Shown here: positions 639 to 59,721 of the stretch, piece by piece | Layout: the number at the start of each line of letters is the position of its first letter | Numbering within the stretch: the stretch's first letter is position 1 | From: a virus | Lineage: Duplodnaviria > Caudoviricetes | DNA length: 60,814 bases | Strand: one strand, 5' to 3' | Virus record (IMG/VR): IMGVR_UViG_3300033144_004933 | Span: 1 to 60,814 of that record | Notes under the pieces: generated by a model | What the model was told of the DNA's origin: nothing | The model's input: the letters and a program-made list of their open reading frames with translations, nothing else | Databases searched by the model: none | Translations under genes and position numbers: made by a program

Positions 639-1463
639 ATGGCACTAACAGGAAAATATGTAAGCATAGATAGGATTATGGAAGGTATATTCCGTGATTA
701 TGCATGGACTCATGAAATAGACTGGGTAGATGCTATGGAATGGGCAGGAGAAGCTATGGACTTAATAGCAGCTCCTAAGCAATATGTAGAAAAAGTAACT
801 GATGGTAATGAGGCTATTGGCCATCCTTGTCCTATAGAAATAAAGAAATATAGGGGTAAATTACCTTGTGGATTAGTTCAAATTACTCAAATAAGAGAAA
901 AATCTACAAAGATACCCCTTAGGTATTCCCAAGACAATTTCCATAGGGGACTTGAAAAATCAGAAGCTGATGCTCCAGAAACTACTTTATCCTGGTTTGG
1001 AAATATAAATTTTACTTCTCCCTTCATAGTTAATAGTACTCTAGTCAAGGATAATTTTAGTACTGAGCTAAGTTATAATCTATCTGATTGTTACATCTTT
1101 ACTAATTTTGAAGAAGGAGAATTGGAAATGAGCTACAAGTCTCTACCAGTAGATGAGAATGGATATCCTACTATACCAGATAATATAAAGTACATCCAAG
1201 CAGTTAAAGGATATATTGCAGAAAAAATAGGACAGAAATTATATCTATCCAATAAACTAACAACCGATAAGTTTAACTTTTTACAAAGAGAAAGGGATTG
1301 GTACATAGGTGCTGCAACTTCTGCAGGGCTAATGCCGGGCATAGATGAGATGGAGAGTTGGAAAAATCAATTTATACGGCTTATTCCTATCCTACGTTCT
1401 CATAAAACCTCTTTTAAGTATGTAGGGGACCCTGCTAAACAAAATACTCTTAATTCCTTTTAA
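639..1463 (+). CDS. Tail tubular / ring protein (P22 gp4-like, crAss-type)
   Basis: 274 aa; YVSIDRI, IFTNFEEGELEMSYKSLPVDENGYPTIPD and RDWYIGAA resemble crAss-like tail tubular proteins; abuts the stabilisation gene. Confidence 0.75.
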   Translation: MALTGKYVSIDRIMEGIFRDYAWTHEIDWVDAMEWAGEAMDLIAAPKQYVEKVTDGNEAIGHPCPIEIKKYRGKLPCGLVQITQIREKSTKIPLRYSQDNFHRGLEKSEADAPETTLSWFGNINFTSPFIVNSTLVKDNFSTELSYNLSDCYIFTNFEEGELEMSYKSLPVDENGYPTIPDNIKYIQAVKGYIAEKIGQKLYLSNKLTTDKFNFLQRERDWYIGAATSAGLMPGIDEMESWKNQFIRLIPILRSHKTSFKYVGDPAKQNTLNSF

Positions 1464-4400
1464 ATGAAGCCACAGGTACATACTAATACTTTTATAAAGG
1501 GTATGGATAAAGATACTTCTAAACAGAAGTATGAAAATACCAAATATGAGAATTTGCGTAATGGCAGGCCTATAACTGATAAAGGACTGTCTACTAGGGC
1601 TCTAGAAAATATTAAAGGAAATGCTGTTGCTTATGATTTTCCCCTTTTAAAATCTTTTATGTACATAAGTGCTACTCCTTTAACAAATGATTCTCCTTTA
1701 GTAGAAAAACAAGAAAATGTAATTATAGATTTTGATGCTAGTTATCCTACATCTGGAAATGCATATTTTTCAGGAGTTGTAACTTTTCACACCGGAGAAG
1801 AGTATCTTACCCAGATTGCAGGACTTGTAGATACTTTTAATACCACTGTAGGAACAGGAGAAGAAATAAAATACTACAAAGTTCCAGGTGGAAATAATTT
1901 AGTACTTTATACTGAATTCGTACATTTTAACGGTATTATACTTCAAAATTATTCTCCTTACGCATCTGTAGAAGTTGCAAATGATTTTTTAAACTTTAAA
2001 GTAATAGGATCTACAGTCTTAAGAGAAAGATTACTTCTATTCACAGTCAATAAGCAAGGTCCTTTAGAATATGGTCAGATTTGGGAAAATACTTATGATT
2101 CAGAAAATCCTCTGGGTACCCAAAAAATAGTATTAAAATATAATCAGAAACTTAATTTATCAGAAAAACATCCTATAGAAGCTCTTTCTTATAGGGAAAA
2201 TGAAGATACAGAGCTTTTATATTGGACTGATAATTTTCATCCTCCCCGTAAAATAAATTTAGCTGATCAAAATGCAATGGCCCTTATTCCGGATGAATTA
2301 CTATTAAGTAGTAAATCTCAATTGTATCCTGCAATGGTAAGTGGGGAAGAACAGTCTGGAGGATTACTTCCTTCCGGAATTTATTATCTAACCTATAAAC
2401 TAGAAAAATTTGGAGGAAATATTACAAATATAGCTCCCTTTAGTAATTATGTACCCCTAATCGCAGATGTAACCTCTACCCAAGGAACAGAAACTAATTA
2501 TGAAAATACTAACTATCCAGAAACTACTATAGGTACCGAAAAATCCTTACGGTATTTAATTCCTAATATACCAAAAGGGTTTGATAAAATATATGTATAT
2601 GTAGTATATCAAGATGCTCCTTCTAATCAACTTGCTTATTTAGTAGAAGAAAAATTAATAGGTAATACCTCTTCCTTAGAACTAACAATATCTTCTCTGG
2701 GAGATAAGCCTAAAGTTACAGTATCTAGCTTATTTTCCTATGATATAGACTTTGAGAAGGTTAAAACTATGGCTACTAAAGATTCCAGACTACTTTTTGG
2801 AAACGTAAAACATGCTGCTTTTGATTTAGATTTTGATGCAAGAGCCTATAGATTTAATGCTAACGGAGACTCTTATACCCCTATTAGTTCTGGAAAATTA
2901 AATTGGGGAATTGATTTAGAAGAAAATGTTATAAATCCAGAAAATGATGATAGGACTGCTAATCTTTCTCCGGATGACTATTCTTATCAGACGGATGGAG
3001 TTACAAGAGGAGGAGAAGGTCCTAATATAAAATATGAATTTACTACCAAAGAAGTTATCTTAGACTCTTGTACTAATGCTGCTCCTACTAATACAAGCCC
3101 CTGGACTGGTTATCAAAATCTGTATAAATTAACTCCTATAAAGACTCCCTTTATAAATCAGCCTATAAAAACTACTGATTTATATGATATAGAAAATAAT
3201 ATTGCCTCCCCTATAGAAATAGACTTAGGTCCTGGATTTAGAAATTTTAAGAATACCCGATGGGAACACTACTACAAAGGCTATATGAGAGATGAAATAT
3301 ATAGATTTGGAATTGTTTTCTATTCTTTAACTGGAAGTCCCTCTGAAGTAAAATGGATAGCAGATATCAGAATGCCTATAGATTCTGAATTATCTGCAAC
3401 AAATCCTGATTCTGTATTGTGTAGATGGTGGGGAAAAGATGGAACTATACCCGAGGGAGTAGGACTGCCCTATGGAATACATGATGTAGGAAGAGATGAA
3501 GGAAATACTCTTCAAGAATATAAACTTAATTATGCTTCAGTAGGAGGAAGTTTAGGAGTAAAATTTACCGTAGATGTATCTTCACTTTCAGGTAAGATAT
3601 CTGGATATTCTATTGTAAGGTCTCCGAGAGAAGAAAAAGATAGAACTATATTAGCAGAAGGGGCAATAGGAGAAGTAAGAAAAGGGGTCTTTGGAGGAGA
3701 TGCCGCAAGTACTAATACTTTAGAAGGAGAGTTATTATACAATCATACTGATGTAAATGAAGGAAATTTTTCAGCATATTCTAGTAGTTTTGATCCTCAA
3801 GAAGTAGAAGATGTAGTCACTTTTGATGCTCCGGATCTTAAATTTATGACAGGAGCTAGGATTAGAGATTATGAAGGAGGAGAAACAGAAGAGAAATCTT
3901 ATTACCTAAAACCTGTTGCAGGATATGTTCATATAGATGAATCAGATACTGGTCTTGATGTAGGGCCTCTACAAGTACCTTTTCAAATTGCTACTCCCAT
4001 AGTAGACGGGGCTCCAGTAATAGGAACTCCTACTGTAATAAAACCTGAGAGTATTCATGAAAGTTTAGGAGGTGCTGGTCCTTCCGCTTATTGTAAATCT
4101 TTATTAAGAATATTTGGAGTAGGTAGGAATTCAAGACTAAATGCAGTAAAAGAAGGACAATCTTTTCCACAAAATGCTTATGGTAAATTAGAAGATATAA
4201 AAAAGGTTGAAAGTAATACTTTAGAAAGTAAAATACAGGGACAGAGATTTTCCAACAGAGGTAATCCATTATTAATATCTGATACTACAGGAGGAGCTCC
4301 AGTCATAAAGGCTATTTTAGCAGGACCAGGAGTTTTTACAGTTCTAGGAGCAGGGAATCCTAGTAAAAAAATGGCATGGAGAATTTTAAATGAATCCTTT

Positions 4401-6767
4401 GGATATACCAACCTAACTACTAAACCCCATGAAGACAATAAAATAGGAAATTTTTCCTGGTCTTCAAATAACTCAGATATTTCCCGGAAAGGACATACAG
4501 CAATAGTAGATCTTTGCAGACTTCCAAATAACCAATATGGGGGCAATACTTATCTGGCACGTCAGAATAGTGAGTACATAACTACAGGAAACTATGTTCC
4601 CGTAAATACTACGGATACAGAACTAAGTACTGTTGTATTTGGCGGAGATATAGCAATAAGTGCTTTTGGAGAGAAAAAGATATATGAACAAGCTTACTTA
4701 GACTTACAAGGCAACCAAACTACACAAGATCCTGAATCCCTTACAATTTCTTATGTATCTCATTTAATGGGTAGAATCTTTCCAGTACAAACTATTGGTA
4801 ATATAGAATTAAGAACCGGGTTTGAGTTCAATAACTACATACAAGGAGGGGGAGGAGATATATCTCTAAGAAGAATAGCTCCTGATGAATACTTATTGCC
4901 AGTAATGTATCATAAAGAGAAGACTTTACAACACTATTTAGTAGAAGGTGCTGGAAATACTATTATAGGGGAGTTTGATACTAGGGTTTATATGTCAGAA
5001 TTAAAGATAAACGGAGAGTTATCTGATTCCTGGAGTTCTTTTAAACCTTTAAATTATATTGATGTAGATGGTCCTTATGGTCCTATAAATAAATTAGAAG
5101 TTTTAAATAGAAAAATTATCTTTTTTCAAGACCATGCTCATGGAACAGTAGACCTTAATCCTCGTTCTCTAATTACTGATTTAGAAGGAGGAGAAATTGA
5201 ACTGGGTACTGGAGCAGGATTAGTAGATTTTACTTATGCTTCTAATACAGTAGGAGCATTTCATCAATGGGGAGTTTTAAAAGGCAATGGAGCTATTTAC
5301 TTTTTTGATGCTTATCATAAGAAGATGTATAAAATAGATGGGCAAGGAGTAAGAGCACTCTCAGACCAAAAATCAATGAGTTCTTATTTCTTTAATAATA
5401 TAGTAGGTTCTGTATTAAATAAAGATAACTCCCTATTATTTGAAGGAATAGCAACTACTTTTGATTATAGATTTAATGAAGCCATATTTACTTTCCACAC
5501 AAAAGTGGGATTATATGTTAAACCTTCTGGAGAAATAAACACTGCATTAAAAGAAGTTGTTAAAACTGAATATTCAGATAGGGTATTAGGAATAGTATCT
5601 ATTCCCCTTGGGGGAGGAATATCTATTCCTTATTATTTAGCTAATTTACCAGTAGTATGTCAAATAGATACCACTGGGGAAATATATGATATTAATCATT
5701 CTTTAGATACTTATCAATTAAATTTTGATAGTACTGCAGATTACAATAAAGTAATCTCTGATCTAAATGCGGGATGTAGATTACAAATTTATGATGGTTC
5801 CTCTACGGACCCTATCCTACTTAATAAATGGGTAAATGCTCAGGTAGTACCTGGATTTCAAAGTGAACAAAATTTTCAGATAGAAGCTCCGGTAGGTTAC
5901 TTTAAATATGTATTTAGCAATAATTTAACAGATACTAATCTAAGATATAGAACTGTTACTGATGATATTAACTTTAACAACATAGTAGAAGAACTAAATT
6001 TAGGGTACAATCTTCAAATAAAAGATCAATATGGTATTTGGAGAGAAGCTACCATAAAATCTTATACTCCAGATTCAATTATTTTAAATCTAGGATTAGA
6101 GTTAGAAAATACTTTTCCTGCTGTTTCCATAACTTCAGAGTGGCCCATAGAGCTGAGAACAATAGCCTATGAGTATGTAAGTCCTGAAGGGGAAGTTATC
6201 ACTACCGGAGATGATGATACTAGGGTAGCACAGTCCATAACTTTGGTATTTAATGAAGCCATAGACGCTTTTAGCTCTTTTTATGACCATTATCCTCCTA
6301 TTTATATGAATGATACCAGGAGGATATTCAGTCAAGTTCCTAAAGGATACCGGATGTATATACATGATGAAGGAAGAAGACAAGAGTTTTATGGAGTACC
6401 TTTTCCTATGACCTTAGATTTAGTAGTAAGTCCTAAGGGAGATTGGACTAAGGTATTCAACAATGTAGAGTTCTTTACAATACTAGAAAATGAATTAGGA
6501 GAAGATATTTTTAATGAAACTTTTCAAGAACTACAGATATACAATGAATATCAGGATACAGGTACAACTACTTTAGTTCCAAATACTAATGTCAAAAGAA
6601 GAATGAGAACTTGGAGATTAGCAATCCCCAGAGATAGTTCTGGTAGCAATGCCCGGATAAGAAATCCTTATGTACAAATGTTTTTAAAATTTCTAAACAC
6701 AACTGGAGTAGATAGAAGATTTGTAGTACATGACATAAATACGCACTATATAGATGTTCCTATGTAA
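1464..6767 (+). CDS. Tail stabilisation / muzzle protein (P22 gp10-like)
   Basis: 1767 aa; NTFIKGMDKD start, LLYWTDNFHPPRKIN, GYMRDEIYRFGIVF, DVDGPYGPINKL and C-terminal RRMRTWRLAIPR...ARIRNPY typical of crAss-like stabilisation proteins. Confidence 0.8.
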   Translation: MKPQVHTNTFIKGMDKDTSKQKYENTKYENLRNGRPITDKGLSTRALENIKGNAVAYDFPLLKSFMYISATPLTNDSPLVEKQENVIIDFDASYPTSGNAYFSGVVTFHTGEEYLTQIAGLVDTFNTTVGTGEEIKYYKVPGGNNLVLYTEFVHFNGIILQNYSPYASVEVANDFLNFKVIGSTVLRERLLLFTVNKQGPLEYGQIWENTYDSENPLGTQKIVLKYNQKLNLSEKHPIEALSYRENEDTELLYWTDNFHPPRKINLADQNAMALIPDELLLSSKSQLYPAMVSGEEQSGGLLPSGIYYLTYKLEKFGGNITNIAPFSNYVPLIADVTSTQGTETNYENTNYPETTIGTEKSLRYLIPNIPKGFDKIYVYVVYQDAPSNQLAYLVEEKLIGNTSSLELTISSLGDKPKVTVSSLFSYDIDFEKVKTMATKDSRLLFGNVKHAAFDLDFDARAYRFNANGDSYTPISSGKLNWGIDLEENVINPENDDRTANLSPDDYSYQTDGVTRGGEGPNIKYEFTTKEVILDSCTNAAPTNTSPWTGYQNLYKLTPIKTPFINQPIKTTDLYDIENNIASPIEIDLGPGFRNFKNTRWEHYYKGYMRDEIYRFGIVFYSLTGSPSEVKWIADIRMPIDSELSATNPDSVLCRWWGKDGTIPEGVGLPYGIHDVGRDEGNTLQEYKLNYASVGGSLGVKFTVDVSSLSGKISGYSIVRSPREEKDRTILAEGAIGEVRKGVFGGDAASTNTLEGELLYNHTDVNEGNFSAYSSSFDPQEVEDVVTFDAPDLKFMTGARIRDYEGGETEEKSYYLKPVAGYVHIDESDTGLDVGPLQVPFQIATPIVDGAPVIGTPTVIKPESIHESLGGAGPSAYCKSLLRIFGVGRNSRLNAVKEGQSFPQNAYGKLEDIKKVESNTLESKIQGQRFSNRGNPLLISDTTGGAPVIKAILAGPGVFTVLGAGNPSKKMAWRILNESFGYTNLTTKPHEDNKIGNFSWSSNNSDISRKGHTAIVDLCRLPNNQYGGNTYLARQNSEYITTGNYVPVNTTDTELSTVVFGGDIAISAFGEKKIYEQAYLDLQGNQTTQDPESLTISYVSHLMGRIFPVQTIGNIELRTGFEFNNYIQGGGGDISLRRIAPDEYLLPVMYHKEKTLQHYLVEGAGNTIIGEFDTRVYMSELKINGELSDSWSSFKPLNYIDVDGPYGPINKLEVLNRKIIFFQDHAHGTVDLNPRSLITDLEGGEIELGTGAGLVDFTYASNTVGAFHQWGVLKGNGAIYFFDAYHKKMYKIDGQGVRALSDQKSMSSYFFNNIVGSVLNKDNSLLFEGIATTFDYRFNEAIFTFHTKVGLYVKPSGEINTALKEVVKTEYSDRVLGIVSIPLGGGISIPYYLANLPVVCQIDTTGEIYDINHSLDTYQLNFDSTADYNKVISDLNAGCRLQIYDGSSTDPILLNKWVNAQVVPGFQSEQNFQIEAPVGYFKYVFSNNLTDTNLRYRTVTDDINFNNIVEELNLGYNLQIKDQYGIWREATIKSYTPDSIILNLGLELENTFPAVSITSEWPIELRTIAYEYVSPEGEVITTGDDDTRVAQSITLVFNEAIDAFSSFYDHYPPIYMNDTRRIFSQVPKGYRMYIHDEGRRQEFYGVPFPMTLDLVVSPKGDWTKVFNNVEFFTILENELGEDIFNETFQELQIYNEYQDTGTTTLVPNTNVKRRMRTWRLAIPRDSSGSNARIRNPYVQMFLKFLNTTGVDRRFVVHDINTHYIDVPM

Positions 6768-12938: not shown

Positions 12939-15900
12939 ATGCCTCAATTTCCTGCTATTAATCCTTACACTAAGGCTCCTAAATACACTAGGAACCCCTA
13001 CCCTCTTGATGATTTATGGAGAGCTCAGGCTTATAAAGCTATGAAGGATATAAATACAGCTACAGAAGAGTATAATAAATTTGATGAGGAAGTACAAGCC
13101 CTAGCACAAAATATAGCAAATGAGAAAGTAAATCCTGCCCAAGCTGCTTCTAAATTAGCTGCCCTTCAAAGCAAGTATAAAAAAGCTGCTCATTCAGGGA
13201 CTCTTAAACACTTTGCAGAAAACTTACTAAGAGAACAAAACTATGATGCAGCATTAAAAGGTTGGGTATCTTCTGGAAGTAAAGGTCGAATTCCTGATGA
13301 ATTTAAAGATTTTTATAGAAATCAACGAACTACAGATGCATTACAATTTGATGCTGAAGGACAACCAACTACAGGAATGTATTCAAAAGATGCTTCATTT
13401 AGTAGCTACTATAAAGAACCCTGGATTCAAGCGTATTTATCTAAAGGAGCTACAGATGTAAAATCAAGTATAATTCAAAAATACGAAGAAGAATTTAAAG
13501 TTAAATTAGATGAAAATGAAAGAGCTCATTTCTTTACAGAAAAAAAAGGAGTTGGAAGACAGAGATTAGCTAAAAGATTACTATCAATGATTACTCCAGA
13601 TTTTATTGAATCTGCTCAATTTAAAACAGATGTTAAGAATAGAGTATATTCAAACAATCATAATAAAACAGGAGCAATAAAAGAAGATGAATTCTATACT
13701 GAAGATGCAAATGGTAATATAACTTTTGATACAGAAACTGAGATGGGAAGAATATTAGAAGGAGTATTAGAAGGATATACTTATGAACAAGCTACTACAC
13801 AAATAAGGAAATCTAGTGATCCAAAAGAAGGCACCACAGGGCAAACCCCAGGAAATAAGGGAGGAGGAGGAGGAAAAAAAGAGAAGGAAAAAGTAAACAA
13901 AACACTTAAGGGAGGCACAAATACTCTTAATACTGGTTACCTAAATACTACTTATTATGATAAGAGTAAACCTAACCCTGTAGCTACTTTAGAGGGACTA
14001 GAGTCTCAATTAACTAATGTAAATACTAATATATCTAATTATGAAAATGATACTATTCCACCAGATCAAGCTCTTATAAGTGCAGAAGATCATGCAAATA
14101 ATCTAATGCAGAGAAACATATTGGGATCTAGAATAGCTAATATAAAAGCTGAAATAGAAACTTTAAAAGAAGGATCTAATTATTATCCACAGTTAAGTCT
14201 TCTTGTAGAAGATGAAGACAAGTACTTATCCGGAGAAATACAGCATAGCGGTATAGTGTATGAAGAAGGATCTGGATTAGAAGAGGGGGAATATATACCC
14301 TATGAGAAAGTAGATTTAAACAAAGTAAATTTAGAAACTATAGAAAAACATAGAAACTTTGTAGAAGCTCTATCTTTAGAAGCCCCTAACTGGATAGATT
14401 CTGATGGAGCACTTAGAAAGACTCCAAGTGGAGTACCAATAATGTGGTCAACACTAAAAGGAGTAGATGGTAAAATGATAACTGGGGATGAAAAAAAGTA
14501 TCTTGAGAATATTATGAAATTCGCAAAAGAAAAAGATCATTTAGATAAAGCGGTTACTAAGCATGTAGCAGACGAAGTAACATCTCTTCAAGACAAAGGA
14601 AACAGAACTACAGATAAAAGAACAGGCCAGACATATCCCGAAGCACAGGATGCTCTTTTTAATGTTAGAGGATTACCTCTGTATGTAAACACAAAACAAG
14701 GTATTGGGTATACAGTAGATAAACAAATAACAGGCAGTCCTAAAGCATTTGCTTGGTGGGAAATAAAAACAGTGGACGGAAAAAAAGTACTAGCTAAAAA
14801 TCCAGCCTTTGAAAAATTAATATATCATCCAGATGCAACTATAAGTGAGGAAGATTTTAAGAATCTGACTCCAGCAGAACAGCAAACGAAAAAGGACGCA
14901 GCAGAGAAAAAAGGAGGATTATATGTTATGAATACTATAGGAATTACTGAACATCAACTTTCTAGGGACCATAATAATCCTTTAATTGCAGTAAAAGTTA
15001 AAAACAAAAGTACAGGGAAAGATCATATGTACTATGTAGAACCTAATAATGATCAGAATGAGATTTTTCAAGATATATATGATAGCTATGCATTACATGC
15101 AAAAGAGCATGGGGATAAACCTTCTGAGCAGCAAGCAACTAGGATAGCTAATATGCATTATTATGATAAATTTGAAGAGGCACTAGGAATAAATATGGGG
15201 AAAGGAGAAGTATTACCTATCCCCGATGCAGAAGAGCTTTATCCAGACCACGCTTCCCATTTAACTCCTCAAGAACAACAACAACTACAGCAGTCATTAC
15301 CATTTAACATAGGAAGTCGGAGTAACGTTCTTATAGGGGGAGCAAAAGAATATAATATACCTTTAGGAGGGGGAACAAAGCCCTATATGGATGGAACAAA
15401 GCGTAAACTTTTTGGAAACAATATTGACTTTAAAATTATACAATATCCAAATGGAATAGTAAGTATAAGAAGTCCTTTCCTTATTACAGAAACAGAGAAA
15501 ACAGGAGAAAAAGAAATGGGAGGAGGGGCAGATCAGGGACAAAGACTGGCTGCTTTAAATATGGCAAAAGACGAGTATGTAAAGGCTGCCAAAACGTATG
15601 CAAAAGTACATAGATTCGCTAACAAGCATACAATGAATAGTAACAAATTTGGAGCAACAGTTGCTGATGAGAAATTAAAAGATGACCTCATAAAGTATTC
15701 TCTTATAGAAGCGGGTATTAATCTTAATAATCCAGCTACGGCAACTGAGGAGAGAAAAAAAGAAGCCACAAAGAACTATAGAGATATGGCAAAGCATCTA
15801 AATAGGGTACTCTATACTAGAGATGAATCTTTTCCAGAAGATGCAAAAGAAGATGGGGTGCTATCAGATTTATATAACATAAATTTTACTTCTAAAGGAA

Positions 15901-15959
15901 AAGAAGTAACAAACTACCTTGCTACAGAATCTCCTCCTGGGACTCCTGCGGGAAAGTAG
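12939..15959 (+). CDS. Capsid cargo / ejection protein (short form, 1006 aa)
   Basis: Long ORF in cargo block ending GCG GGA AAG TAG. Confidence 0.6.
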   Translation: MPQFPAINPYTKAPKYTRNPYPLDDLWRAQAYKAMKDINTATEEYNKFDEEVQALAQNIANEKVNPAQAASKLAALQSKYKKAAHSGTLKHFAENLLREQNYDAALKGWVSSGSKGRIPDEFKDFYRNQRTTDALQFDAEGQPTTGMYSKDASFSSYYKEPWIQAYLSKGATDVKSSIIQKYEEEFKVKLDENERAHFFTEKKGVGRQRLAKRLLSMITPDFIESAQFKTDVKNRVYSNNHNKTGAIKEDEFYTEDANGNITFDTETEMGRILEGVLEGYTYEQATTQIRKSSDPKEGTTGQTPGNKGGGGGKKEKEKVNKTLKGGTNTLNTGYLNTTYYDKSKPNPVATLEGLESQLTNVNTNISNYENDTIPPDQALISAEDHANNLMQRNILGSRIANIKAEIETLKEGSNYYPQLSLLVEDEDKYLSGEIQHSGIVYEEGSGLEEGEYIPYEKVDLNKVNLETIEKHRNFVEALSLEAPNWIDSDGALRKTPSGVPIMWSTLKGVDGKMITGDEKKYLENIMKFAKEKDHLDKAVTKHVADEVTSLQDKGNRTTDKRTGQTYPEAQDALFNVRGLPLYVNTKQGIGYTVDKQITGSPKAFAWWEIKTVDGKKVLAKNPAFEKLIYHPDATISEEDFKNLTPAEQQTKKDAAEKKGGLYVMNTIGITEHQLSRDHNNPLIAVKVKNKSTGKDHMYYVEPNNDQNEIFQDIYDSYALHAKEHGDKPSEQQATRIANMHYYDKFEEALGINMGKGEVLPIPDAEELYPDHASHLTPQEQQQLQQSLPFNIGSRSNVLIGGAKEYNIPLGGGTKPYMDGTKRKLFGNNIDFKIIQYPNGIVSIRSPFLITETEKTGEKEMGGGADQGQRLAALNMAKDEYVKAAKTYAKVHRFANKHTMNSNKFGATVADEKLKDDLIKYSLIEAGINLNNPATATEERKKEATKNYRDMAKHLNRVLYTRDESFPEDAKEDGVLSDLYNINFTSKGKEVTNYLATESPPGTPAGK

Positions 15960-16007
15960 ACCCCTCTACTAAACAACAATCCCCAGTAGTAGAGGAACCC
16001 CCGGGGA
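15950..16007 (+). promoter_or_regulatory. -1 programmed ribosomal frameshift signal (G GGA AAG, 6-nt spacer, stem-loop/pseudoknot)
   Basis: Slippery heptamer 15950-15956 directly before TAG; stem CCTCTACTA 15963-15971 / TAGTAGAGG 15987-15995; loop TCCCC 15980-15984 complementary to GGGGA 16003-16007; -1 frame open from 15896 to 17944. Confidence 0.85.
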
Positions 16008-17944
16008 AACAAAATACTCTAGTAACCGAACCAATAGAAGATAATCCTATTAATGCTTATATTGAGGAGGCAAAAGAAAAAATAGTAGAAAAAGGAAAAA
16101 AGATACTTCCTGGTATCAAACTTTCTGATTATAAAGATCAAGCTAAAGATGAGGCAGGAATCAAAGGCATTCCCACAGAGCCTATAAAAGATGAAGATTT
16201 TAAGAATATAAAGGTATCTAAAGGAGCCCATGCTCCGTATGCTCATAATGCTATGAGAACCTTCTTAACAGACCTGGACAATGAAGGTATAAAAGCAACA
16301 ATTACAGGACTATTTAGAACAGAAGGATATAACAAATCTTTAAAAGGATCTTCTCCTAATAGCTACCATTTAGATGGTCTTGGAGTAGATATAGGGGGTA
16401 CTAAGAACAATAAAAGCATTAAGCAGATAAAAGAATATGTTGATGCTGGAAATACAGTAACTGTTGATGGTATAACATATAAACCGGAATATGGATATCA
16501 TGGAGACCATTTTCATTTAGAATTAGAGCCTCAAAAAGCTCCTGCAAGTCCTATAGGCCCTACAGGACCAGAAGGAAGTATTCCTACAGGAATAGAAGGT
16601 CCAAAATATACTCCACAAGCCAAAGAAGATGAGGGTGATCCATGGTACTCTGGCCTTACAAAGGCATCTACTGATTTTATAACAGAAAATATTCCTGAAG
16701 ATGTTGTCAATGTTCTAGAAAATCCGAATGCTACACTAAAGGATAATGCAGAACTAGCTCTACACTGGGTTCAAAAGCAAACTGGAACAGGTCTATATTC
16801 AGAAGAAGCAGTTAAAGCAGAGAAACTTAAAGTATACAAAGCAAAACAGAAGAAATATCAAGAAAAACAAAAGAAACTAAAAGACGAAGCAGCAGAAAGA
16901 GAAAGAAAAGCAATAATAGATGAACAGAATAGGCAGGAGAACTTGATATTTTTAAAAGATATTCAAGTGGGGGAAACTACCAAAACACATCCCTCTGGAC
17001 ACCAAGTAAAATCTGCAGTTGTAGATTTAGGAACAAGTGCGGAAAGACCTGGTGTAAAATTTGGTATTGGTCATAATTATAAAGTAGATGGATATAAACC
17101 CAATTATTATAAGAATCAACCAAATATAGACGTTCAAAACTCACGAGGAATTATAGGAGCTTTCCATCACAAGTTTGTTCCTTATGAGCAAACAGCAAAT
17201 AATAAATTTGAAGTTCCTGTTCAGCTTGCATGGAACCAGGAAACTGGAGTCTTTACAGCTAAAAAAACTGAAGATTTGCTTCCAAATGATTTAGTAGTAC
17301 CTTACCGTGGAGGAAGCAATCCAACAGGTAATATAACAAGACTTAAAGATTTAGATATTAAAAAATTAAAAGATGGCTCCTTTGATATAACCACTGGTGG
17401 TAAACATGGTATGGATACCACTAATGGAACATCAACAATTAAAAAGAAATCAGGAAAACATTTCCATATTGGAATAGATTGGGGAGAAAAAAGGGATAAA
17501 TATGGAAAAGTAGATTATACTACAGCAAAGGGTAAAGAAAGAGTTATAAACTCAAAAGATTTAAATCAGTATAGGTCACTAAGGGGAGGTATGGTTGTAA
17601 TTTTTGATAATGAAGCTGAAGTAAGTGTTATGGTTACAGGTAGTGTAAATAAAATGTTTCAGGTTGTTAATGAGCTTCAAAAGAAATATCCAAACAAGGA
17701 GTGGAATATAGCAAAAGGAGATACAGGTACATATGCAGTATCTGCATTTAATCCAGAAGGAAAAGGCACAACAACTGTAAAGGATTTTGCTTCTTATTCA
17801 AATCAGAACACTTATGGAGAAAGTCAATATTTAGTTCTATTAGAACAAGCTCAAGAGGAAGCTAAAGAAAAGAAAAATGAAATACCTTTTATAATTCCTC
17901 CTGAAAAATTAGAAGAATTAGTAAGTAAAAGTAATAAACATTAA
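15956..17944 (+). CDS. Frameshift extension (662 aa; track ORF 16253..17944) containing an M15-family Zn peptidase plus an unknown C-terminal domain
   Basis: ITGLFRTEGYNKSLKGSSPNSYHLDGLGVDIG...HGDHFHLE fits the M15 pattern (R, SxH, D, HxH); 99 stop-free codons precede the first ATG. Confidence 0.75.
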   Translation, partial: VDPSTKQQSPVVEEPPGKQNTLVTEPIEDNPINAYIEEAKEKIVEKGKKILPGIKLSDYKDQAKDEAGIKGIPTEPIKDEDFKNIKVSKGAHAPYAHNAMRTFLTDLDNEGIKATITGLFRTEGYNKSLKGSSPNSYHLDGLGVDIGGTKNNKSIKQIKEYVDAGNTVTVDGITYKPEYGYHGDHFHLELEPQKAPASPIGPTGPEGSIPTGIEGPKYTPQAKEDEGDPWYSGLTKASTDFITENIPEDVVNVLENPNATLKDNAELALHWVQKQTGTGLYSEEAVKAEKLKVYKAKQKKYQEKQKKLKDEAAERERKAIIDEQNRQENLIFLKDIQVGETTKTHPSGHQVKSAVVDLGTSAERPGVKFGIGHNYKVDGYKPNYYKNQPNIDVQNSRGIIGAFHHKFVPYEQTANNKFEVPVQLAWNQETGVFTAKKTEDLLPNDLVVPYRGGSNPTGNITRLKDLDIKKLKDGSFDITTGGKHGMDTTNGTSTIKKKSGKHFHIGIDWGEKRDKYGKVDYTTAKGKERVINSKDLNQYRSLRGGMVVIFDNEAEVSVMVTGSVNKMFQVVNELQKKYPNKEWNIAKGDTGTYAVSAFNPEGKGTTTVKDFASYSNQNTYGESQYLVLLEQAQEEAKEKKNEIPFIIPPEKLEELVSKSNKH

Positions 17945-20900: not shown

Positions 20901-23900
20901 ATCCTGACCATACTATAGAAGAAGACAAATTTCTGGACTCTGTTCTAATGGAACAAGTAGAAGACGAAGAGGGTGGAGAAGTAGAGAAAAAAATGAGTGA
21001 TGAGGAATGGTATGAGGGAGAAACTATAGCAGATCTCATAGCCAGAGTAGGAAAGAAACAAGCTCTTTCTAATCTTAAAAAGGTTCATAAAGCTTTTACA
21101 GCAGCACTAGAAGAATTAGGGAAGACACATAAGACCATAACAGAAGAGGAAGAAAAACATAAATATAATGCCCGTGCCCTATCTCTTCTCGAACAAATAG
21201 AAGAAATAAGTAAAGCAATAAAAGAACTAGAAAATGCTAGTAAGGCTCCTCAAGATAATAACAAACAAACAGATGAAACTATTAATAAAGGACCAAGAAC
21301 TTTTGGTCCTCAGCCTACAAAGAAATCTACAGATTTACCAACTTCTTTTGAATCTAAACAGGCTTTTCATTTAGCCTATGTGTCTAGCAATGACCCCCTA
21401 CATCCGGGATCTGCAAAGGATGGATTTTATAATGAAGTATTAACTAAGTTATTAGAAGATCCAGATTGGAAGGCTGCAGGAGTAAGGGTAGTATATGAGG
21501 TAGACTTGCCTAAAGAAGATACTCCAACAATGAAGGCCTTTATGGTAAAAAATAAAGAAAAAGTAAAAGGCCTAACAAATAAGGTAATAAATAAAGAAAA
21601 GATTACAGATGAAGAAGCAGGGAGACTAACTATCAGAGTAGTATTTTTAAATGAAGATGGGACAGAAATGAAGAAGGACGGAGAAATAGTCAGAGCTTGG
21701 CTACATGATTCCGAACATCCAATGATAACTAGAAATGAGAGCAAAGAAGAGATACAGGGGTTAAAACAATTTATCTACAATCACTATAGAGAAGGAAATA
21801 AGGTAGGAGGCAGTTTATTAGGATATAGCCATCCTGGGCACTTAAAGGGAGGACCTAATTATAAAACAGATGCGGGGACTAATACAGCATCTGGAAATGT
21901 AAAAATAATACCAAAATATGGGCCTGCGGGAATAGCATATGCTAAAGCAAATAATGCCATATACTCTTTAAGAAGAAAAAATACTCAAAATCATTTTGGA
22001 AATCCTTTTGTTTCACTTACAGATGACCAAGGTAAAAAAAGAAATCAGGAAAATTATGAAAAAACAGCACAAGAGGGAGAGCTAGTGTGGGTAGATTCTG
22101 GTGAAGAATCCGTAAAAAATTACAGGGAGTGGCTTACTACCGATAAATATGATGGGCAGTCTGAAGCATGGGATAAAAGAAAAAAATGGATTTTAGCACA
22201 AATAGCGTCCGGGAAGTTAAAAGGTAAGACTATAATGTATTACAAAGAATTAGGACGACTTTCCCATGCTAATGTCTTAGATGAGCTAATTAATGGAGAA
22301 ATAGATAGAAGACAGTCCCCAGAGTTTATTCCTGTGATAGAAGCCTTAGGAACTACAAACCTGGAACTCGCTATAAGAGATGAGACTGGGGCATTAGTAA
22401 GTGGGTATAAAAAAGATTCAAAGCAGAAAGTAATAATTGAAAAATTAAGACATGCTGCAGACCCTAATAAACTTATAGGAGGAGTATATACCCCTGTGCA
22501 AATGTCAGATGGTAGTTGGTTACCCCATAGGCTACAAGCTTCTACTCTTACAGCAGAGGAGGCAGAGCTAATATATATGCTATATGCTAATCTGTTTAGT
22601 GGAGCAAATTATGGAGATAATATTAGTCCTGGAGTAATTAAGTTCATAACAGAACATAAAAACCCAGTAATAAACGGATTAGCAAAAGTATTTGATTTAA
22701 ATGATACAAACTATGACCAATTGAGAGACTTCTTTTTGTTATCAGGAAGAAAGAGGTTTGATAAAACTAATCCTAAAACAAGTATATTCTTTTCCCCTCA
22801 CGGGAATCAAATTAATTATGCTGGATTTATAAAAGAAGGGAAAGTTGCTTATAACTATATGAATAAACAGAACTTCCAGCAAAAAGATGTAAAAAAGAGA
22901 TTCATAGACAACTTAATGCTTAGAACAAGAAATATAACTTTAAGCACAATAAATAAAAAGGGAACCAATGCCCATCTTTTGGGAAACGGACTCTTATTAA
23001 GTGATTTAAGAGCTCCTGAAGGTCCTTCAACTGTTTCTTATCAGCCTACTGTTGCTTTAAATAGTAATGTATCTGTAGAGGGCTCTAAGACATCTAAGCC
23101 TCCTGTTTCTACAGAAAAAGCTCCTATATTAACTGTATATCAAGGAATAAAAGGGAAAAAAGAAAATAGGGACTTTAATTACTATACTTTAAGTAAGGAG
23201 GAAGCAAAAACTTACGGGGAAGTATCAGAGTATCAAATTAATACTGCTGGATTTTTAACAGGAAATACAGATTTGTATTGGGAGTTAATGAATGAATTTG
23301 AAGAAGATTCAGGAAAAAGATTTGATATTCTTGATTCCACTCCTGGCGGATTAAAACACCAGGCTAAGTTTTTTACTTTTTTAAAAGAAAAAGGATATAA
23401 AGGGTTAAATCTAATACCAGAGGGGGCAAAACCAGGAGTAGGAGAGAATCAATATATAGTTACCTTCTTTCCCGCTTTATCTACTAAGCAAAGAGATAAC
23501 CTAGTTTATTTAACTATGAGCAGTAATTCTTATGAAGATGCTAAAAAAAGACATGAAGCTGGTCAAGACCCCACTAAAAAAGAAATTGATGAAGGGAAAC
23601 AATTATTTGATTTATTAACAGAGGAAGAAAAAAATATTATTGGAAGTGGTGAAGCTTCAATGGAGTTTTGGGAGAAATTAAATGCAGATATAGGTCCTCG
23701 TTTTGAACAACAACCAACAGCTCCGGGAACTCAAACTAAAATAGATTTTGATACTAATCTTCCAGATACACCATCAAATGATGAAAATCCTTTTCAAAAG
23801 CAAATTCCTTATGTTGAAAATATTGCCAATCCCGCCCAGAAAAGAGATTATGAATCTTACATGCCGGATGGAGAAACTGAATCAATAGCAGTAGAAAAAG

Positions 23901-26900
23901 TACTTAAGAAGATAAAAGAACAAAGTACTGACCCCTTCTTGTTAGAAATGATAAAATTTCTAGAGGACAAGCGTTTTGATGTTTTCTCAGAATTTCCTTT
24001 GTTAATGTATACTAGGAATTCTGAAGAAATAGCAGCTATTAATAATTTACTAAAAGCAAATCCAGAAGTTAATGCAAAAACAATTGAAAAGCTTAAAAAA
24101 CATGTTCCGGCTTACTATGATACTGATAGAAATCATATAGTTATTAATAAGGATACTTTGCCTTATATGACTTTGAATGAAATTCATAAAACAATAGTAC
24201 ATGAGGTTTGGCATGCAGTTACTGCAGTTCCATTTACAAAGAAAAGAGCAGATAGAAACGCTGCTGAAAGAGAATTCGTAGATGCCATAGCCGGACTTTA
24301 CAGGATATTTAAAGACAAGAAATTTGATTTTAAAAGAGCTCAGGAGACTTATGGCTTTAAAACTCCTCATGAGTTTATGGCAGAAGTTATGAGCAATCAA
24401 TACTTCAGAGATGAGATAGCTAAAGAGTATCCCCCAAATTTCCTACAAAGAATGTGGAATGCTATAATGAAGTTTTTAAAGCTTCCTAGTAGACAAATAG
24501 GAATGCTTTTTAAGATAGAAAATACAATTAAAAAATTTGTAGATAAATCTCAAAAGTTCCCTCCCCAAGTACAAAGCGAGCTAACAAAAAGAATAATTTT
24601 AAAAAAGATACTTAGTCCTGCAGATAGACCCCTTAATCATTATTCAGATGATGATTTAGAAGAAATTACAGGAGCAATGACTTACATACTTATAGATGCT
24701 GCTAAAATAACAGACCTGGATAGTATTAAAAACATAAAAACACAATTTAAAGAAGATGAAAATGGACATAATAAAATATTCAGGGTACTGAATAATATTA
24801 GAATAGGTCATAACAATTCTGGAAATCAGGACATGGCCCAAAAATTTGCAAATATTCTATCACAAGAAGAGTTTCCTTATTTCATGGAAAGAGTTAAAAA
24901 TAACTTAGCAGAATATGGATTAAGAGAGAGATTAAGCAAACAGGAGGAAGAAGATAAAGCCGCAGGACTAGGAATTACCCCCTCATGGGAAACTAATCTA
25001 AAAGATAACGCTACTTCAAACACCAAATTAAGAGTAGCTTTTAATCCTATAGTAGCTGAAGTAACAGAAGAAGAAGGCAAAAGAACTTACAAATATGAAA
25101 AAGGACAGTATCTAGGCCTCTTCAAATTTGGAGATTTTAATGAGACTTGGAAGATACTACAGAAAGAACTTTCTGGAATAGTATCTACTAATAAGGAAAG
25201 AGATGTAATGAAAAAAATGAGAAACCGCTTAAATTGGTTAGCATTTTATGATAAATCTCTTTATAAATTAGTAGACTTTTTTGATGATCAGTCAATCAGT
25301 AATTTTAAAAAGGTTCAATTCCATAATGCTTTTAGTAAAACAAGATTAGCATATACCTCTACTTTTTTCAGACGGGTAGAAGATGGGACATATTCTTTTA
25401 ATATTGGAAGCTCAGATTCAGCTTCTGCTGAGAATAGATTATTAGCTACTTGGGAAGATAACTTCTTGTTTAAGTACACAAAAGCAGATAATGACCAAAT
25501 ACTGCATTTAAATATACCCAAGCTTCAAAAAGTATATGATAAATACCTTCAAGTTAAAGAGGAGATAAGGCAGATTGGTAAGAAAATGGAAACTAATCCG
25601 GATGCATATACCTATGAAGATTTAACAAAAGAACTAGATAAACTTTCCGAAGTACTACAGGAAACGGGTATGCAGATTTCAACCAAAGCTCTGACTTTAT
25701 TTATACGAGAAAATTTTGATGAGAATTTTGGAACAGGTCTTTTACATCTTATAACAGAGCCTTTAGCTAGAGTGTATGATTCTAATACCGGTAATACAGT
25801 TAAAAGACTATTAAACGGAAGTGCCGTTTTTGCTTATCAGCAGGAAGATAGTGCTTATACTGATTATAATACTCCTATGGCTAAAGAGCCTAAATTTAAT
25901 ACTCTTTTGCCCTCAGTGTTATTCTTTTCTAAAGATAACTATGAGAATATGATTCTAGGACAAAAAGGAAGTAAATATTGGCTCTATTCCCATCATGACT
26001 TTATAACCAAATCTGTTGCAGAATGGTTAGAAGAATCTGATAATCCAGAAAAATTACAACAATTAGCTTCTCTTCCTTTTTACCAGAATTCAAGGCTAGT
26101 ACAAGAGCTTATCAGTAGTCCAGATAAACTAAAAAACTTTAAACTACATCACTATAATAATTTTAAAGATACCGAAGATCCTTCTAAGGATGATGGCTAT
26201 ACAGAAATGAAAAAGCCAGATGATAGGGCAGATAGATATAATCGGACTATGAGAGGAACAGCTCCTTTTATGAATACTGCAGATAAGTCCAGGCATTTAA
26301 ATTTTAGCGGGGTAGGATTTAAAAAGACTAAAATTCTCTTCCAAGAAGATGGTAGTTATGATTTTCAAAGTAACACAACTGCTAAACAATCTGTAGAACA
26401 AGTAATTGGGTATTTAATAGATGAGATAAATGCTACAAGAGTAGCATTTTCTCAGTTATTTTCTGAAGATCCTATTCCTAGATCAGAACATGTAGTATAC
26501 TACCATTACCAATTAGATTCAAATACTGGAGAAAGAATCTACAAGGATAAGAACGGATTTCCGGTAGGAAATGCTTTTAAATTTTATACTTTCCCTGAAC
26601 TTAACTACTATAATGAAAAAGGAGAAGTATCTAATAGTGCAGATATATTCATGGAGGCTACTCCCGGCAAACCATATGTTATAAATGAAGAATATATCAG
26701 GACCGAAATTAATGAAGAAACAAATAAGGAAACGCTTATAGTAGAACCTAGCTTTTTTGATAAAATAAGACCTATTGCAGAGAAAAGTTTATCAGAAAGG
26801 GTAACTAATGCTGTAGATAAAGGTATAGAAGATGGTATAATAACTACCCAAGTGATAGATGGGGGTATGGTAAAGATAGATACAGGTCGTCTTGAAGATA

Positions 26901-29900
26901 TAGTAATAGATTCTAATGAATATAGCAAATTAGAATATGCTAAACTATACCAAGCCAGTGAGCAAGAAGCTCTTAGGAATTTAATGATGGATATCACCTT
27001 CAATTCTATTGTAAATAATATTGAACTTACTAAATTGTTTATAGGAGACCCTAGATTCTATAAAAATTTAGCAGATGTTAAAAAAAGAATTCCTGCAACT
27101 ATAGCTAATGGACAAGATTTAGCCATTTATCGAGATATGAACAATGAATGGGTAGTACCTCCTCATTATACACAGGCCACAGTTGCTAATGTAATCAGGC
27201 CTTCAGAATATTATGGACAAGAGGGATACGCAGACCTTATAGCAGAAGTAACAGGCTCTACTGTAGCAGAAGCTGAACAGCTCATAGAAGCTTATAAAGA
27301 AGTAAATGTTACAGATGCACAAGCCTGGATAACTTTAGATAGGGCAATCCAGATATATAAAGGATTAGGAAAATGGACAGATGCCCATGACGCTGCTCTT
27401 CCTGCAATAATAGATGGCACTGCAGATTTTCAAGAGTTAAGTTTATTCCTACAACCTATTAAAGGAGTTCATTATGAATTAAGAATAGAGAATGGAATGG
27501 CTATCCCCTCTTATTCAAAATACTCTCAAGCTATACTTTTACCTTCTTTGATAAAGGGCACTCATCTGGAAAATCTACTTGAAGCAATGCAAAATGAAGA
27601 CCAGCTCACTGACGAGGTCATAGTATTAGATGGTGTAAAAGTAGGAGCTACTGACATAGCTAATTGGTTTAATAAAGATACTTATGATATCAATGCTGCA
27701 GAAGATATTGTTCTTCATCCTGTAACATTAGATAATAGGTATTGGAAATTACAACAAGATTTATCTCCTCATGGATTAGGTCCTTCTCTAGTAGGATCAC
27801 AGGTTAAGAAGACAATGACTGCTAACATCGCACTAGATGATGATTACGGAGATGGTTGGACAGGTAGGGATGTTATACGAGCAGCTTATGATGTAGATAT
27901 GACTCTTTCAAATAGAGGAAGAGACTTCTTATTAAAAGAACTTGTTTATGATGAGAATACAGGCAAAATAAGTAAAGATAAGATTTATGAATTAATACTA
28001 GAAGAATCAAAAACTGATCCTTTCTTTTATAGAGAGGCTTTAGAAGAAAGAATTGATTTTGATGCCTTACCCCAATATGTTAAGAAAATAGAAAGCAGAC
28101 TATCTGCTCTTGTTACCGCAAGAACAACTAAGCTTAAACAATTAGGAGGAGCTTACGTTCAAGTTTCAAATTTTGGATTTGATATTAAAGAAAGCACTAA
28201 GTTGCCTGATAATATCAAGCAAGGAATAAAATGGTTGAAAGGCAAGGAGCCTTTAAAACCAATGAGAATAGAAAAAGACGAAGTAAAGCCCGGACAGTTT
28301 CTTTTACCTCATAAAATGTTGAAGGAAATAGAGGGATGGGAGAATATGACCGGGGAAGAAATTGCTAAAAAAATAGATCCGGAAGTACTTATAGCAATAG
28401 GATATAGAATTCCTAACCAAGCTAACTCTTCCAATGATGTAGGAGAAATAGTAGGATTTTTACCAGAAGCTGTAGGGGATGCTGTAGTAGTTTATAACGA
28501 GATTACCACTAAAACAGGTTCTGACTTTGACATTGATAAAATGTTCATGATGTTACCTGAATATGAAAAAGATGAAAATGGTAACATTGTTAAAGTTCAA
28601 TACTTAGATGAAAGTAATTCTACTCTAAAGGAAAGAATCAAAGTATTTGCTCCTACTACCCCAGAAGCGGCAATGATTAGAAAATCCTATAGGAAAGAGT
28701 TTGAAGACTTATATGAAAGAAGGAAACAGCATAGGGACAAGCAAACACAAAAGATAAATGCACTAAAAGAAAAGAAGAAACTACAAGAACAAGATATTGA
28801 TGAGTTATGGAGTACTGAACAAGAAGAACGAGATTATATTAAAACCTTAAAAGCAGAACTAAAAGAATTAAGAAAAGAAAAAAAACACTTAGGAACAAGT
28901 GCTTCTGAGTCTAAAGAATACAAAACAGTATCTGGTAACATTACAAATATAGAAGAAGAAATAGCAGAAAGATATGCAATATTAAAAGGATATGAAGATT
29001 TAAGAGCTTCCATAGGAGAAACTAAGCTCAAAAAGACAGACGTTGATAAAGAATATGAAACTAAGTCAGAACAAATTCGCCTATTTAAAGAAGAAAAACA
29101 AGCATTAAAAGACAAGATGCAAGAAGAGATTGAAGCTATTATTGATGAAGAAAAATTTGCAAGATTGCCTATGTTGGAACAGAATACAGATTTAGCTCTT
29201 CATAACAGGAGAATAGATGTGTGGAGAAGAATACTGCTAAACAAAAACAAATACTTAGAAGTAACAGCTCCTTTAGATGGTCCCGGCACTATTACTGAAC
29301 AGGTTAAAAATCAGATAAAGGAACTATTCCCAGAGAAAGCTCTAGGAAACTTAGAATTCTTTTCTTTAGAAAATCAGCTGGAAGACAAACATTCCTTTTT
29401 AGGAGGAAAATTTGGAATAGGAGTAACTGCTAATCAATTAGTAGATCATTCTCTTACTCAATTCTCAAAACAATTTCTAAAATTAAAATTGGGAATAGGA
29501 CACGCAGATGAAGATGGGTACATGGATTTATCTCAGCTATATGACGTAGACCACAGTACCGGAGAAACGAAAAATTTAATAATAGGGGCTATAGCAGCCT
29601 ACCTAAATGCTTACGTAGACATTGCTAAAGACAACTATATTACTCGGGGAAATCATAATCTAATAACTGCTAATACAGTTTTTATGCTCCTAAGGGCTGG
29701 AGTACCTTTTAAATTTGTGAATGCTTTTATAGCCCAACCTATCCTACAAGCTTATGTCCAATTAACAGAAAAAGACCAGGCTACTGTAACAGAAAGAGAA
29801 TTTGATCAGGAGGGAAGAAATGTAAGTGTATTGAGACAGACTCTCAATCTCTTTGGAGGTCAAATGTATAACAGAGATGACTTGCCCACTCTTAATTTAG

Positions 29901-59644: not shown

Positions 59645-59721
<77 letters not shown>

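Follow-up and report, generated by a model that had tools for sequence, protein, structure and literature searches.

The window analysed here is the whole of IMG/VR virus record IMGVR_UViG_3300033144_004933, a linear stretch of 60,814 bp with a GC content of 33.7% and a completeness of 33% by CheckV. It covers part of the genome of a marine crAss-like phage, with tail ring and muzzle genes ahead of a series of very large genes. The gene third in line behind the muzzle gene encodes a protein of 1006 amino acids (aa; P0002) and ends in a slippery heptamer, G GGA AAG, directly followed by a TAG stop codon, with a stem-loop a few bases downstream. From the heptamer onward the −1 frame continues for 662 codons, through a predicted zinc peptidase domain and a second large module, almost to the start of a giant open reading frame (ORF). 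An earlier note on this DNA had read the arrangement as an unannotated −1 frameshift that adds a peptidoglycan peptidase to a fraction of an ejection protein. We describe the shift site, the extension and the relatives of the locus, and weigh programmed frameshifting against the other explanations.

A slippery heptamer and a stem-loop at the end of the 1006-aa gene

The site combines a heptamer in the X XXY YYZ register with a stable structure 6 nucleotides (nt) downstream, within the 5–9 nt usual for frameshift sites. The earlier note had placed G GGA AAG TAG at the end of the 1006-aa gene and a perfect 9-bp stem 6 nt after the heptamer, and both descriptions hold: the motif occupies 15950–15959 in the register of the 0 frame, and the two arms of the stem are fully complementary. 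RNAfold retains the stem in every context from 54 to 201 nt, with pair probabilities of 0.72–0.92 in the 201-nt context. The folding energy is −10.2 kcal/mol for the stem alone and −14.0 kcal/mol for a 64-nt piece (z −1.84). The TAG stop is unique to this ORF among nine + strand genes, the other eight of which end in TAA. The same heptamer, G_GGA_AAG, has been described as highly shift-prone in E. coli (PMC5009743).

Across the 18,822 codons of the window there are 174 in-frame XXXYYYZ heptamers, among them 20 that end in AAAG and three occurrences of GGGAAAG. By minimum free energy (MFE) of the structure 3′ of the heptamer, the one at 15950 ranks second of the 174. Ranks 1 and 3 belong to in-frame heptamers on the − strand, CCCAAAA at 55103 (−15.7 kcal/mol) and TTTTTTA at 52229 (−13.8 kcal/mol).

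These surroundings bear on a simpler account of the site, namely a one-base insertion or deletion (indel) in the G/A run 15950–15955, caused by an assembly or sequencing error or by a recent mutation. The true ORF would then be continuous over about 1668 codons and the stem would be coincidental. Such a coincidence would be rare: a perfect stem of at least 9 bp starting 5–10 nt after a codon position, the spacing of programmed frameshift sites, occurs at just 14 of 18,054 background positions, and an MFE of −14 kcal/mol or lower at 0.93% of 6018 sampled positions. The heptamer would also have to lie by chance in the exact register, with the stop codon immediately after it. The sharp switch of frame exactly at the heptamer, described below, is equally expected from an indel. 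We consider this account unlikely, and return to it once the relatives and the sequencing data have been introduced.

The earlier note had further proposed a pseudoknot, of which only the complementarity stands. The loop pentamer can indeed pair with 16003–16007, giving a second stem of 5 bp (duplex energy −10.0 kcal/mol). However, a complement of at least 5 nt between similarly placed segments of 15 and 20 nt is found at 1055 of 5329 background positions (20%), and the second stem therefore carries no weight in favour of frameshifting. The MFE fold has a local 3-bp hairpin in its place. An H-type pseudoknot at 15963–16007 is thus possible, with a second stem no better than chance.

Translation of the −1 frame and a predicted peptidase domain

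In the −1 frame, an open run of 682 codons extends from 15896 to 17944. As the earlier note had stated, 99 of its codons (15956–16252) lie between the heptamer and the first ATG at 16253, and a shift at the heptamer would give a product of 1668 aa (1006 + 662). Off frame, stops make up 10.8% of codons; 119 codons would then stay open by chance with a probability of 1.3e-6, and 682 codons with one of 1.5e-34. The frame holds no ATG, GTG or TTG between 15896 and 16253, and the first methionine in its translation (P0001) is residue 120.

Codon usage was measured as the log-odds of in-frame versus off-frame codons, with the remaining large + strand genes as the training set. On this scale, in-frame reference windows score 0.62 ± 0.20 and off-frame windows −1.25 ± 0.46. 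The −1 frame scores +0.69 per codon over 15962–16093 and +0.78 over 16094–16252, while the other two frames score between −1.0 and −1.8 over these segments, with 2–8 stops in each. In sliding windows of 12 codons, the 0 frame is positive until about 15927–15936 and the −1 frame is positive from 15954. The coding signal thus changes over from the 0 frame to the −1 frame between 15945 and 15954, at the heptamer.

The extension begins with a Pro/Glu/Lys-rich linker that is predicted to be disordered, followed by a domain of about 150 residues with the features of LAS/M15-type zinc peptidases. A phmmer search of 1.84 billion representative sequences returned 32 proteins at E ≤ 0.001, nine of which match the peptidase part. 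In alignments of 10 and 12 homologues, R141, S156, H158, D165, H205 and H207 (P0001 numbering) are invariant, and the domain contains the H-x(6)-D and H-x-H motifs together with the conserved Arg. By the pattern of the family, H158, D165, H205 and H207 would be the zinc and catalytic residues and R141 the conserved Arg. The match to Pfam Peptidase_M15_3 (PF08291; E 6e-4) scores 20.4 bits, under the curated cut-off of 23.2 bits.

An AlphaFold2 (AF2) model of the region 15956–16660, built from 12 sequences and numbered from the codon at 15956, has a mean predicted local distance difference test score (pLDDT) of 73.6 and is confident from about residue 50 to 190 (block means 81–98). In VIA-align comparisons, the LAS-fold matches include hedgehog N-domains (model residues 63–193; Z 8.7, root-mean-square deviation 3.0, 107 residues aligned), VanXYg (70–192; Z 8.4), the DD-peptidase 1lbu (59–193; Z 8.0) and MepA (48–199; Z 8.0). 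Together with LdcB, these matches span Z 8.7 to 7.5, and the minimal endolysin domains of the M15 phage endolysins LysECD7, Ply500 and LysB4 score between 6.0 and 7.2 (79/82–194). A Z near 8 is a level at which caution is advised; the top 50 matches are nearly all LAS-fold chains. Foldseek matches for the same model are weak (E ≥ 0.024). Of the earlier assignment to the M15 zinc peptidases, the invariant motif and the LAS fold are borne out, and the Pfam match stays below its threshold. The extension carries a predicted LAS/M15-type zinc peptidase, by motif and fold, and its activity would presumably be directed at peptidoglycan.

The separate 563-aa gene annotated downstream of the 1006-aa gene starts at the ATG at 16253, which corresponds to Met100 of the model. 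Ahead of this residue the model has a helix (56–69) and three strands (74–76, 85–87 and 95–97), and Met100 itself lies inside helix 98–109. All LAS-fold matches start upstream of it, and some 50 residues of the predicted fold precede it. Likewise, the alignments of all nine peptidase homologues begin at query residues 56–93, that is 27–64 residues ahead of Met120 of P0001, and two residues encoded ahead of the ATG, Y79 and P114, are invariant among them. Since its ATG falls within the enzyme fold, the 563-aa call is truncated and, as the annotation of a separate gene, wrong. The call also leaves 293 nt between 15959 and 16253, an outlier in a block in which the intergenic gaps measure 0–101 nt. 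Four independent lines, namely codon usage, homology, predicted structure and fold comparison, all show that translation of 15960–16252 runs in the −1 frame, beginning at the heptamer.

Translation of this region could in principle start within it, with the peptidase and the module forming a separate downstream gene that is initiated at a codon other than ATG, GTG or TTG, or by re-initiation after the TAG. In-frame ATA or ATT codons are present at 16034, 16049, 16061, 16082 and 16103, a GAGGAGG motif (16064–16070) lies 11 nt ahead of the ATA at 16082, and five of the nine peptidase homologues are small (196–356 aa), either stand-alone genes or fragments, which speaks for a separate gene and against a frameshift product. 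On the other side, the 24 codons that precede any in-frame near-cognate start (15962–16033) are already coding-like (+0.54, a value reached by none of 1782 off-frame windows), no canonical start codon is available, and the first ATG is buried in the fold. The GAGGAGG motif probably just reflects Glu-Glu codons, because the other + strand genes start without a Shine-Dalgarno motif in the upstream bases inspected. We regard internal initiation as very improbable.

Four further candidates were rejected. Read-through or reassignment of the TAG would meet seven stops in the next 44 codons of the 0 frame, including a TAA at 16023–16025; transcriptional slippage would find no A or G run longer than three at the site; an intrinsic terminator does not fit, with no T-run after the stem on either strand (as judged by eye, with no terminator scan); and an intron does not fit a gap that is coding-like throughout. 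Given that internal initiation is unlikely, read-through fails and transcriptional slippage has no long run to act on, ribosomal −1 frameshifting or a one-base indel is left.

Gene order, relatives of the locus and the conserved module

The muzzle gene is followed by a tightly packed block on the + strand whose products measure 1198, 808, 1006, (563), 4641 and 2124 aa, and the coordinates of the features are collected in Table 1. In crAss001, the muzzle gene gp44 is followed by gp45, gp46 and gp47, and the genes following gp44 encode cargo proteins (PMC10172136). By Pfam matches and gene order, the 1006-aa gene stands between the muzzle gene and the giant gene and is, by position, part of the crAss-like cargo block. 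Of the term "ejection protein" used in the earlier note, the position in this block is thus sustained, and no homology to known cargo proteins was found: P0002 has no PHROG, Pfam or phage-record match, including no similarity to gp45 or gp46. Packaging and ejection of the 1006-aa and 1668-aa proteins would follow from gene position.

Table 1. Features of the locus and its surroundings in the window (positions in nt)
Feature	Position	Strand	Remarks
crAss tail ring protein 1	639–1463	+	Pfam match, E 2e-52
Crassvirus muzzle protein	1464–6767	+	Pfam match, E 1e-136, plus C-terminal domain match
0-frame ORF P0002, 1006 aa	12939–15959	+	Positional counterpart of the N-terminal body of ~1000-aa peptidase-bearing proteins in relatives
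Slippery heptamer G GGA AAG	15950–15956	+	0-frame register; last two sense codons of the 1006-aa ORF
0-frame stop TAG	15957–15959	+	Directly 3′ of the heptamer
Stem-loop, candidate frameshift stimulator	15963–15971/15987–15995	+	9 perfect bp, 15-nt loop, 6-nt spacer after the heptamer
Candidate second pseudoknot stem	15980–15984/16003–16007	+	5-bp complement; duplex −10.0 kcal/mol
−1 frame extension, 662 codons plus TAA stop	15956–17944	+	Predicted trans-frame product 1006 + 662 = 1668 aa
Pro/Glu/Lys-rich linker	15956–16096	+	Predicted disordered (pLDDT <50, model residues 1–47); −1 codon usage coding-like
Predicted LAS/M15-type zinc peptidase domain	16097–16543	+	Model residues ~48–196; P0001 residues ~70–215
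First −1-frame ATG, start of the called 563-aa gene	16253–16255	+	Inside helix 98–109 of the peptidase model; not a credible start
Conserved module, P0001 residues 254–655	16655–17860	+	Long helix, then beta-rich domain (model)
Giant ORF, 4641 aa	17951–31876	+	Starts 6 nt past the extension end; homologous to relatives' giant ORFs; synteny anchor
tRNA-Met (anticodon CAT)	59645–59721	−	Sole tRNA found in the window

When IMG/VR was scanned with an alignment, 11 pattern matches resulted, of which three loci were confirmed (L002, L003 and L004). Each of the three has the peptidase in frame, as the C-terminal domain of a large ORF (966, 1034 or 1032 aa), and a giant ORF of at least 3326 aa begins 5–9 nt after this peptidase-bearing ORF. 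The 4641-aa ORF of the window matches the giant ORFs of L003 and L004 at E 1e-79, with 25% identity over about 1500 aa. At the upstream end of L003 lies an ORF matched by the window's muzzle protein, and the number of genes between muzzle and giant genes is the same in L003 and in the window. Among the nine peptidase homologues from the protein search, four measure 714–1011 aa and carry the domain at the very C-terminus. Because the relatives carry the peptidase in frame at the same gene position, the 1006-aa and −1-frame ORFs are evidently parts of one protein.

Other searches yielded nothing further. The phage records gave no match by megablast or tblastn, IMG/VR searched with P0001, P0014, P0027 and the first 1000 aa of the giant ORF gave no confirmed locus, and among JGI metagenome contigs searched with P0001 and with peptidase alignment A3 none was confirmed. 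In the protein collections, P0002 found only itself among 8000 scored candidates of 553–1761 aa. The giant ORF itself has no Pfam match above threshold and no PHROG match, and a relation to polymerases was not found in these searches; a sub-threshold SprT-like match (E 0.0016) falls on residues 687–746 of its piece 22001–26998.

Behind the peptidase, the extension ends in a conserved module of about 400 aa, modelled with a pLDDT of 82.4. The module shares 63% identity with a portion of an 831-aa protein in which an SLT domain is present as well, and 51–56% with portions of 1067-aa and 2389-aa proteins, with remoter relatives within proteins of 1900–3330 aa; in all of these (P0004–P0013, P0015 and P0024) it lies inside chains of 831–3330 aa. 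Among 21 aligned module-bearing sequences, NlpC/P60 occurs in two, VanY in one and SLT in one, and the module thus appears to travel with interchangeable cell-wall hydrolases. Its combination with the peptidase was not found in any other protein, as none of the 32 proteins aligned to both parts, and no copy of it occurs in the window's own 4641-aa ORF (phmmer, E ≤ 0.01). This distribution suggests domain shuffling between neighbouring cargo genes.

The module has no Pfam or PHROG match. The NAGPA/DUF2233 phosphodiester glycosidase fold takes the top three Foldseek places, at weak E values of 3.7e-3 to 2.6e-2. VIA comparison with this fold gives a weak Z of 3.0–3.9 over 176–189 residues, and the Atlas feature score of 0.84–0.85 is under the 0.9 line. 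We treat this faint resemblance as a lead only.

Eleven sequencing runs match parts of the window. All are labelled as marine metagenomes, every share is 0.35 or less, and none of the 11 holds half or more of the window's words or is an RNA run. A contig of run X1 (3.7x) covers 15980–16338 and differs from the window only within 16014–16074. It is identical over 15980–16013, including the 3′ arm of the stem, and in 16014–16074 carries 13 substitutions and a net deletion of 6 nt that keeps the frame, which, as one contig, is weak evidence. By appearance, 16014–16074 is a strain-variable linker or a small mosaic patch.

The frame kept in this variant bears on the idea that the extension is a dead remnant, in which a real frameshift mutation silenced the peptidase and the module and only the 1006-aa protein is made. 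The in-frame architecture of the relatives does mark the arrangement in the window as derived, which speaks for this reading. Against it, all 682 codons are open, codon usage is fully coding-like, the catalytic residues are intact and, in the single X1 contig, a net 6-nt deletion in the linker leaves the frame in place. We give this possibility very little credence.

Elsewhere in the window, an apparent 1-kb gap between 39181 and 40237, left by a 90-aa ORF cut-off, is occupied by small − strand ORFs of 70–83 aa, with no hint of broken genes.

Proposed programmed frameshifting, its alternatives and known systems

We consider a programmed −1 frameshift at the heptamer, yielding products of 1006 and 1668 aa, to be the best explanation, with a probability of roughly 0.7. 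That the frameshift takes place, its rate and the "minor fraction" of shifted product are what the arrangement would imply rather than what was observed.

Several observations weigh against this explanation. Two homopolymer triplets make up the shift site, the very kind of sequence in which a one-base indel is to be expected, and its fold is modest: with z only at −1.84, 7 of 200 shuffles of the 64-nt piece fold equally well or better. A separate tRNA-Lys for AAG would weaken slippage on AAG (PMC5009743), as would apply here if the host is a member of the Bacteroidota with such a tRNA. In the relatives identified, the peptidase is fused in frame and there is no frameshift, so the shift is not an old conserved trait; no close relative, in which heptamer and stem could be compared for conservation and covariation, was found. 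Comparison of P0002 with the N-terminal bodies of the relatives' proteins gave nothing at E ≤ 1 with BLASTP or phmmer. Shared ancestry of these bodies was also sought with hhalign, and its 18-residue match (E 0.28) was rejected as evidence. That match pairs P0002 residues 17–34 (12987–13040) with residues 16–33 of P0014 and P0027 and is maybe a remnant of ancestry. Finally, contigs of runs X1, X2, X3 and X5 were compared with 15500–16500, and 15906–15979 is outside all of them.

Much of this can be turned in favour of an indel. The relatives' in-frame fusion is the architecture that a continuous ORF would restore, the break falls in the homopolymer triplets, no read or contig from the runs compared spans the site, and a −1 frame still intact over 682 codons is in keeping with an artefact or a change of very recent date. 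Against an indel stand, apart from the rarity of the stem and the register of the heptamer, three observations on the assembly and the databases. No broken gene is present elsewhere in the window; its ORFs of 4641, 2124 and 1767 codons (13.9, 6.4 and 5.3 kb) are unbroken, and the assembly is therefore not indel-prone. No in-frame 1668-aa version was found in the protein collections (lengths 553–1761; all lengths by phmmer). Lastly, two contigs are on record with the exact 563-aa product (P0003) and one with the exact 1006-aa product; the identical 563-aa call suggests, without proving it, that a second assembly shares this frame structure.

Under programmed frameshifting, most ribosomes would stop at the TAG and release the 1006-aa protein. 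Some would pause at the stem-loop 6 nt downstream, possibly also with the stop codon in the A site, and slip back by one base on G GGA AAG, where the tRNA-Gly in the P site would re-pair with GGG instead of GGA and the tRNA-Lys in the A site with AAA instead of AAG. The shifted ribosomes would read the 662 further codons, and the 1668-aa form would gain the disordered linker, the LAS/M15 peptidase and the conserved ~400-aa module. During entry, the peptidase would cleave cross-links or stem peptides in the peptidoglycan. As for its origin, the out-of-frame arrangement likely goes back to domain shuffling between neighbouring cargo genes, by analogy with the systems discussed below: a domain would have landed out of frame, and frameshifting would then have preserved its expression. 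We hold it somewhat better than an even chance that all of this applies together, that is, that a true frameshift in a Crassvirales cargo gene, descended from an out-of-frame shuffle, sets the number of protein copies with the 662-aa peptidase and module, the module possibly acting on envelope glycopolymers.

Several known systems offer parallels. Phage lambda uses the GGGAAAG heptamer for its G/GT frameshift, and no downstream stimulatory structure is known there. G and GT, unlike the proteins expected here, are not virion components, and the gene family is unrelated to the cargo gene. The lambda shift near the end of the upstream ORF yields a minor fusion whose ratio to the short form matters (PMC5009743). 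The −1 frameshift C-terminal extensions of capsid and tail proteins, such as T3/T7 capsid 10A/10B and those with Ig-like domains, form a further group. Some phages have the Ig-like domain in frame and others have it out of frame, which has been attributed to non-homologous recombination and subsequent selection for its expression through frameshifting (PMC5009743). As in both of these cases, a heptamer near the gene end would let a share of ribosomes append a C-terminal domain here, and as with the Ig-like extensions, the peptidase domain is in frame in relatives and out of frame in the window. In contrast to them, the gene is a crAss-like cargo-block gene rather than a capsid or tail-tube gene, and the case is known from sequence alone. 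Moreover, the extension is not an Ig-like decoration and comprises 662 aa, with a predicted enzyme domain and a second large module.

In E. coli dnaX, a heptamer ending in AAAG is followed by a stem-loop a few bases downstream and preceded by a Shine-Dalgarno-like stimulator. The window shares the AAAG-ending heptamer with a stem-loop shortly downstream, but the dnaX shift shortens its product, whereas the shift proposed here would lengthen it, in a phage whose genes do without Shine-Dalgarno motifs. The dnaX type of shift depends on the tRNA-Lys repertoire (PMC5009743).

With respect to the protein, the closest parallels are virion proteins that carry cell-wall hydrolases into the host. T7 gp16 is an ejected internal virion protein with a muralytic domain. 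In crAss001, gp45 and gp46 are large cargo proteins, encoded behind the muzzle gene, that are packaged and then ejected before the DNA so as to cross the envelope (PMC10172136). The protein of the window is similarly large, its gene follows the muzzle gene, and a cell-wall hydrolase on such proteins is an established theme. The enzyme differs from these in being a putative LAS/M15 peptidase rather than a transglycosylase, and its attachment would depend on recoding. The ORFs of L002, L003 and L004 occupy the same position before a giant ORF and share the peptidase family (23–38% identity over the domain), but their peptidase is in frame and ends the protein, with no 400-aa module after it. Within the open-access literature searched, as far as its accessible text goes, ribosomal frameshifting was not found for Crassvirales, ejection proteins or muralytic proteins, which does not prove its absence; for Crassvirales, only stop-codon reassignment turned up there as recoding, and the mentions of frameshifts met with concerned codon reassignment, Nanopore errors and the K1F capsid frameshift.

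The main limit of the proposal is that it concerns a single sequence and was reached by sequence analysis alone. For annotation, it means that automated gene calls truncate the protein and that pipelines will miss the domain boundary and the fusion. Comparison with the relatives portrays LAS/M15, SLT, NlpC/P60 and VanY domains and the 400-aa module as parts swapped among neighbouring giant genes. If the frameshift is real, extensions made in this way would reach a new class of genes, the enzyme-bearing ejected cargo proteins, and a new order, the crAss-like phages, and the locus would offer a concrete, testable case of an injected cell-wall enzyme dosed by recoding. Frameshift efficiency would then tune the packaged dose of the enzyme against the limited cargo space of the virion.

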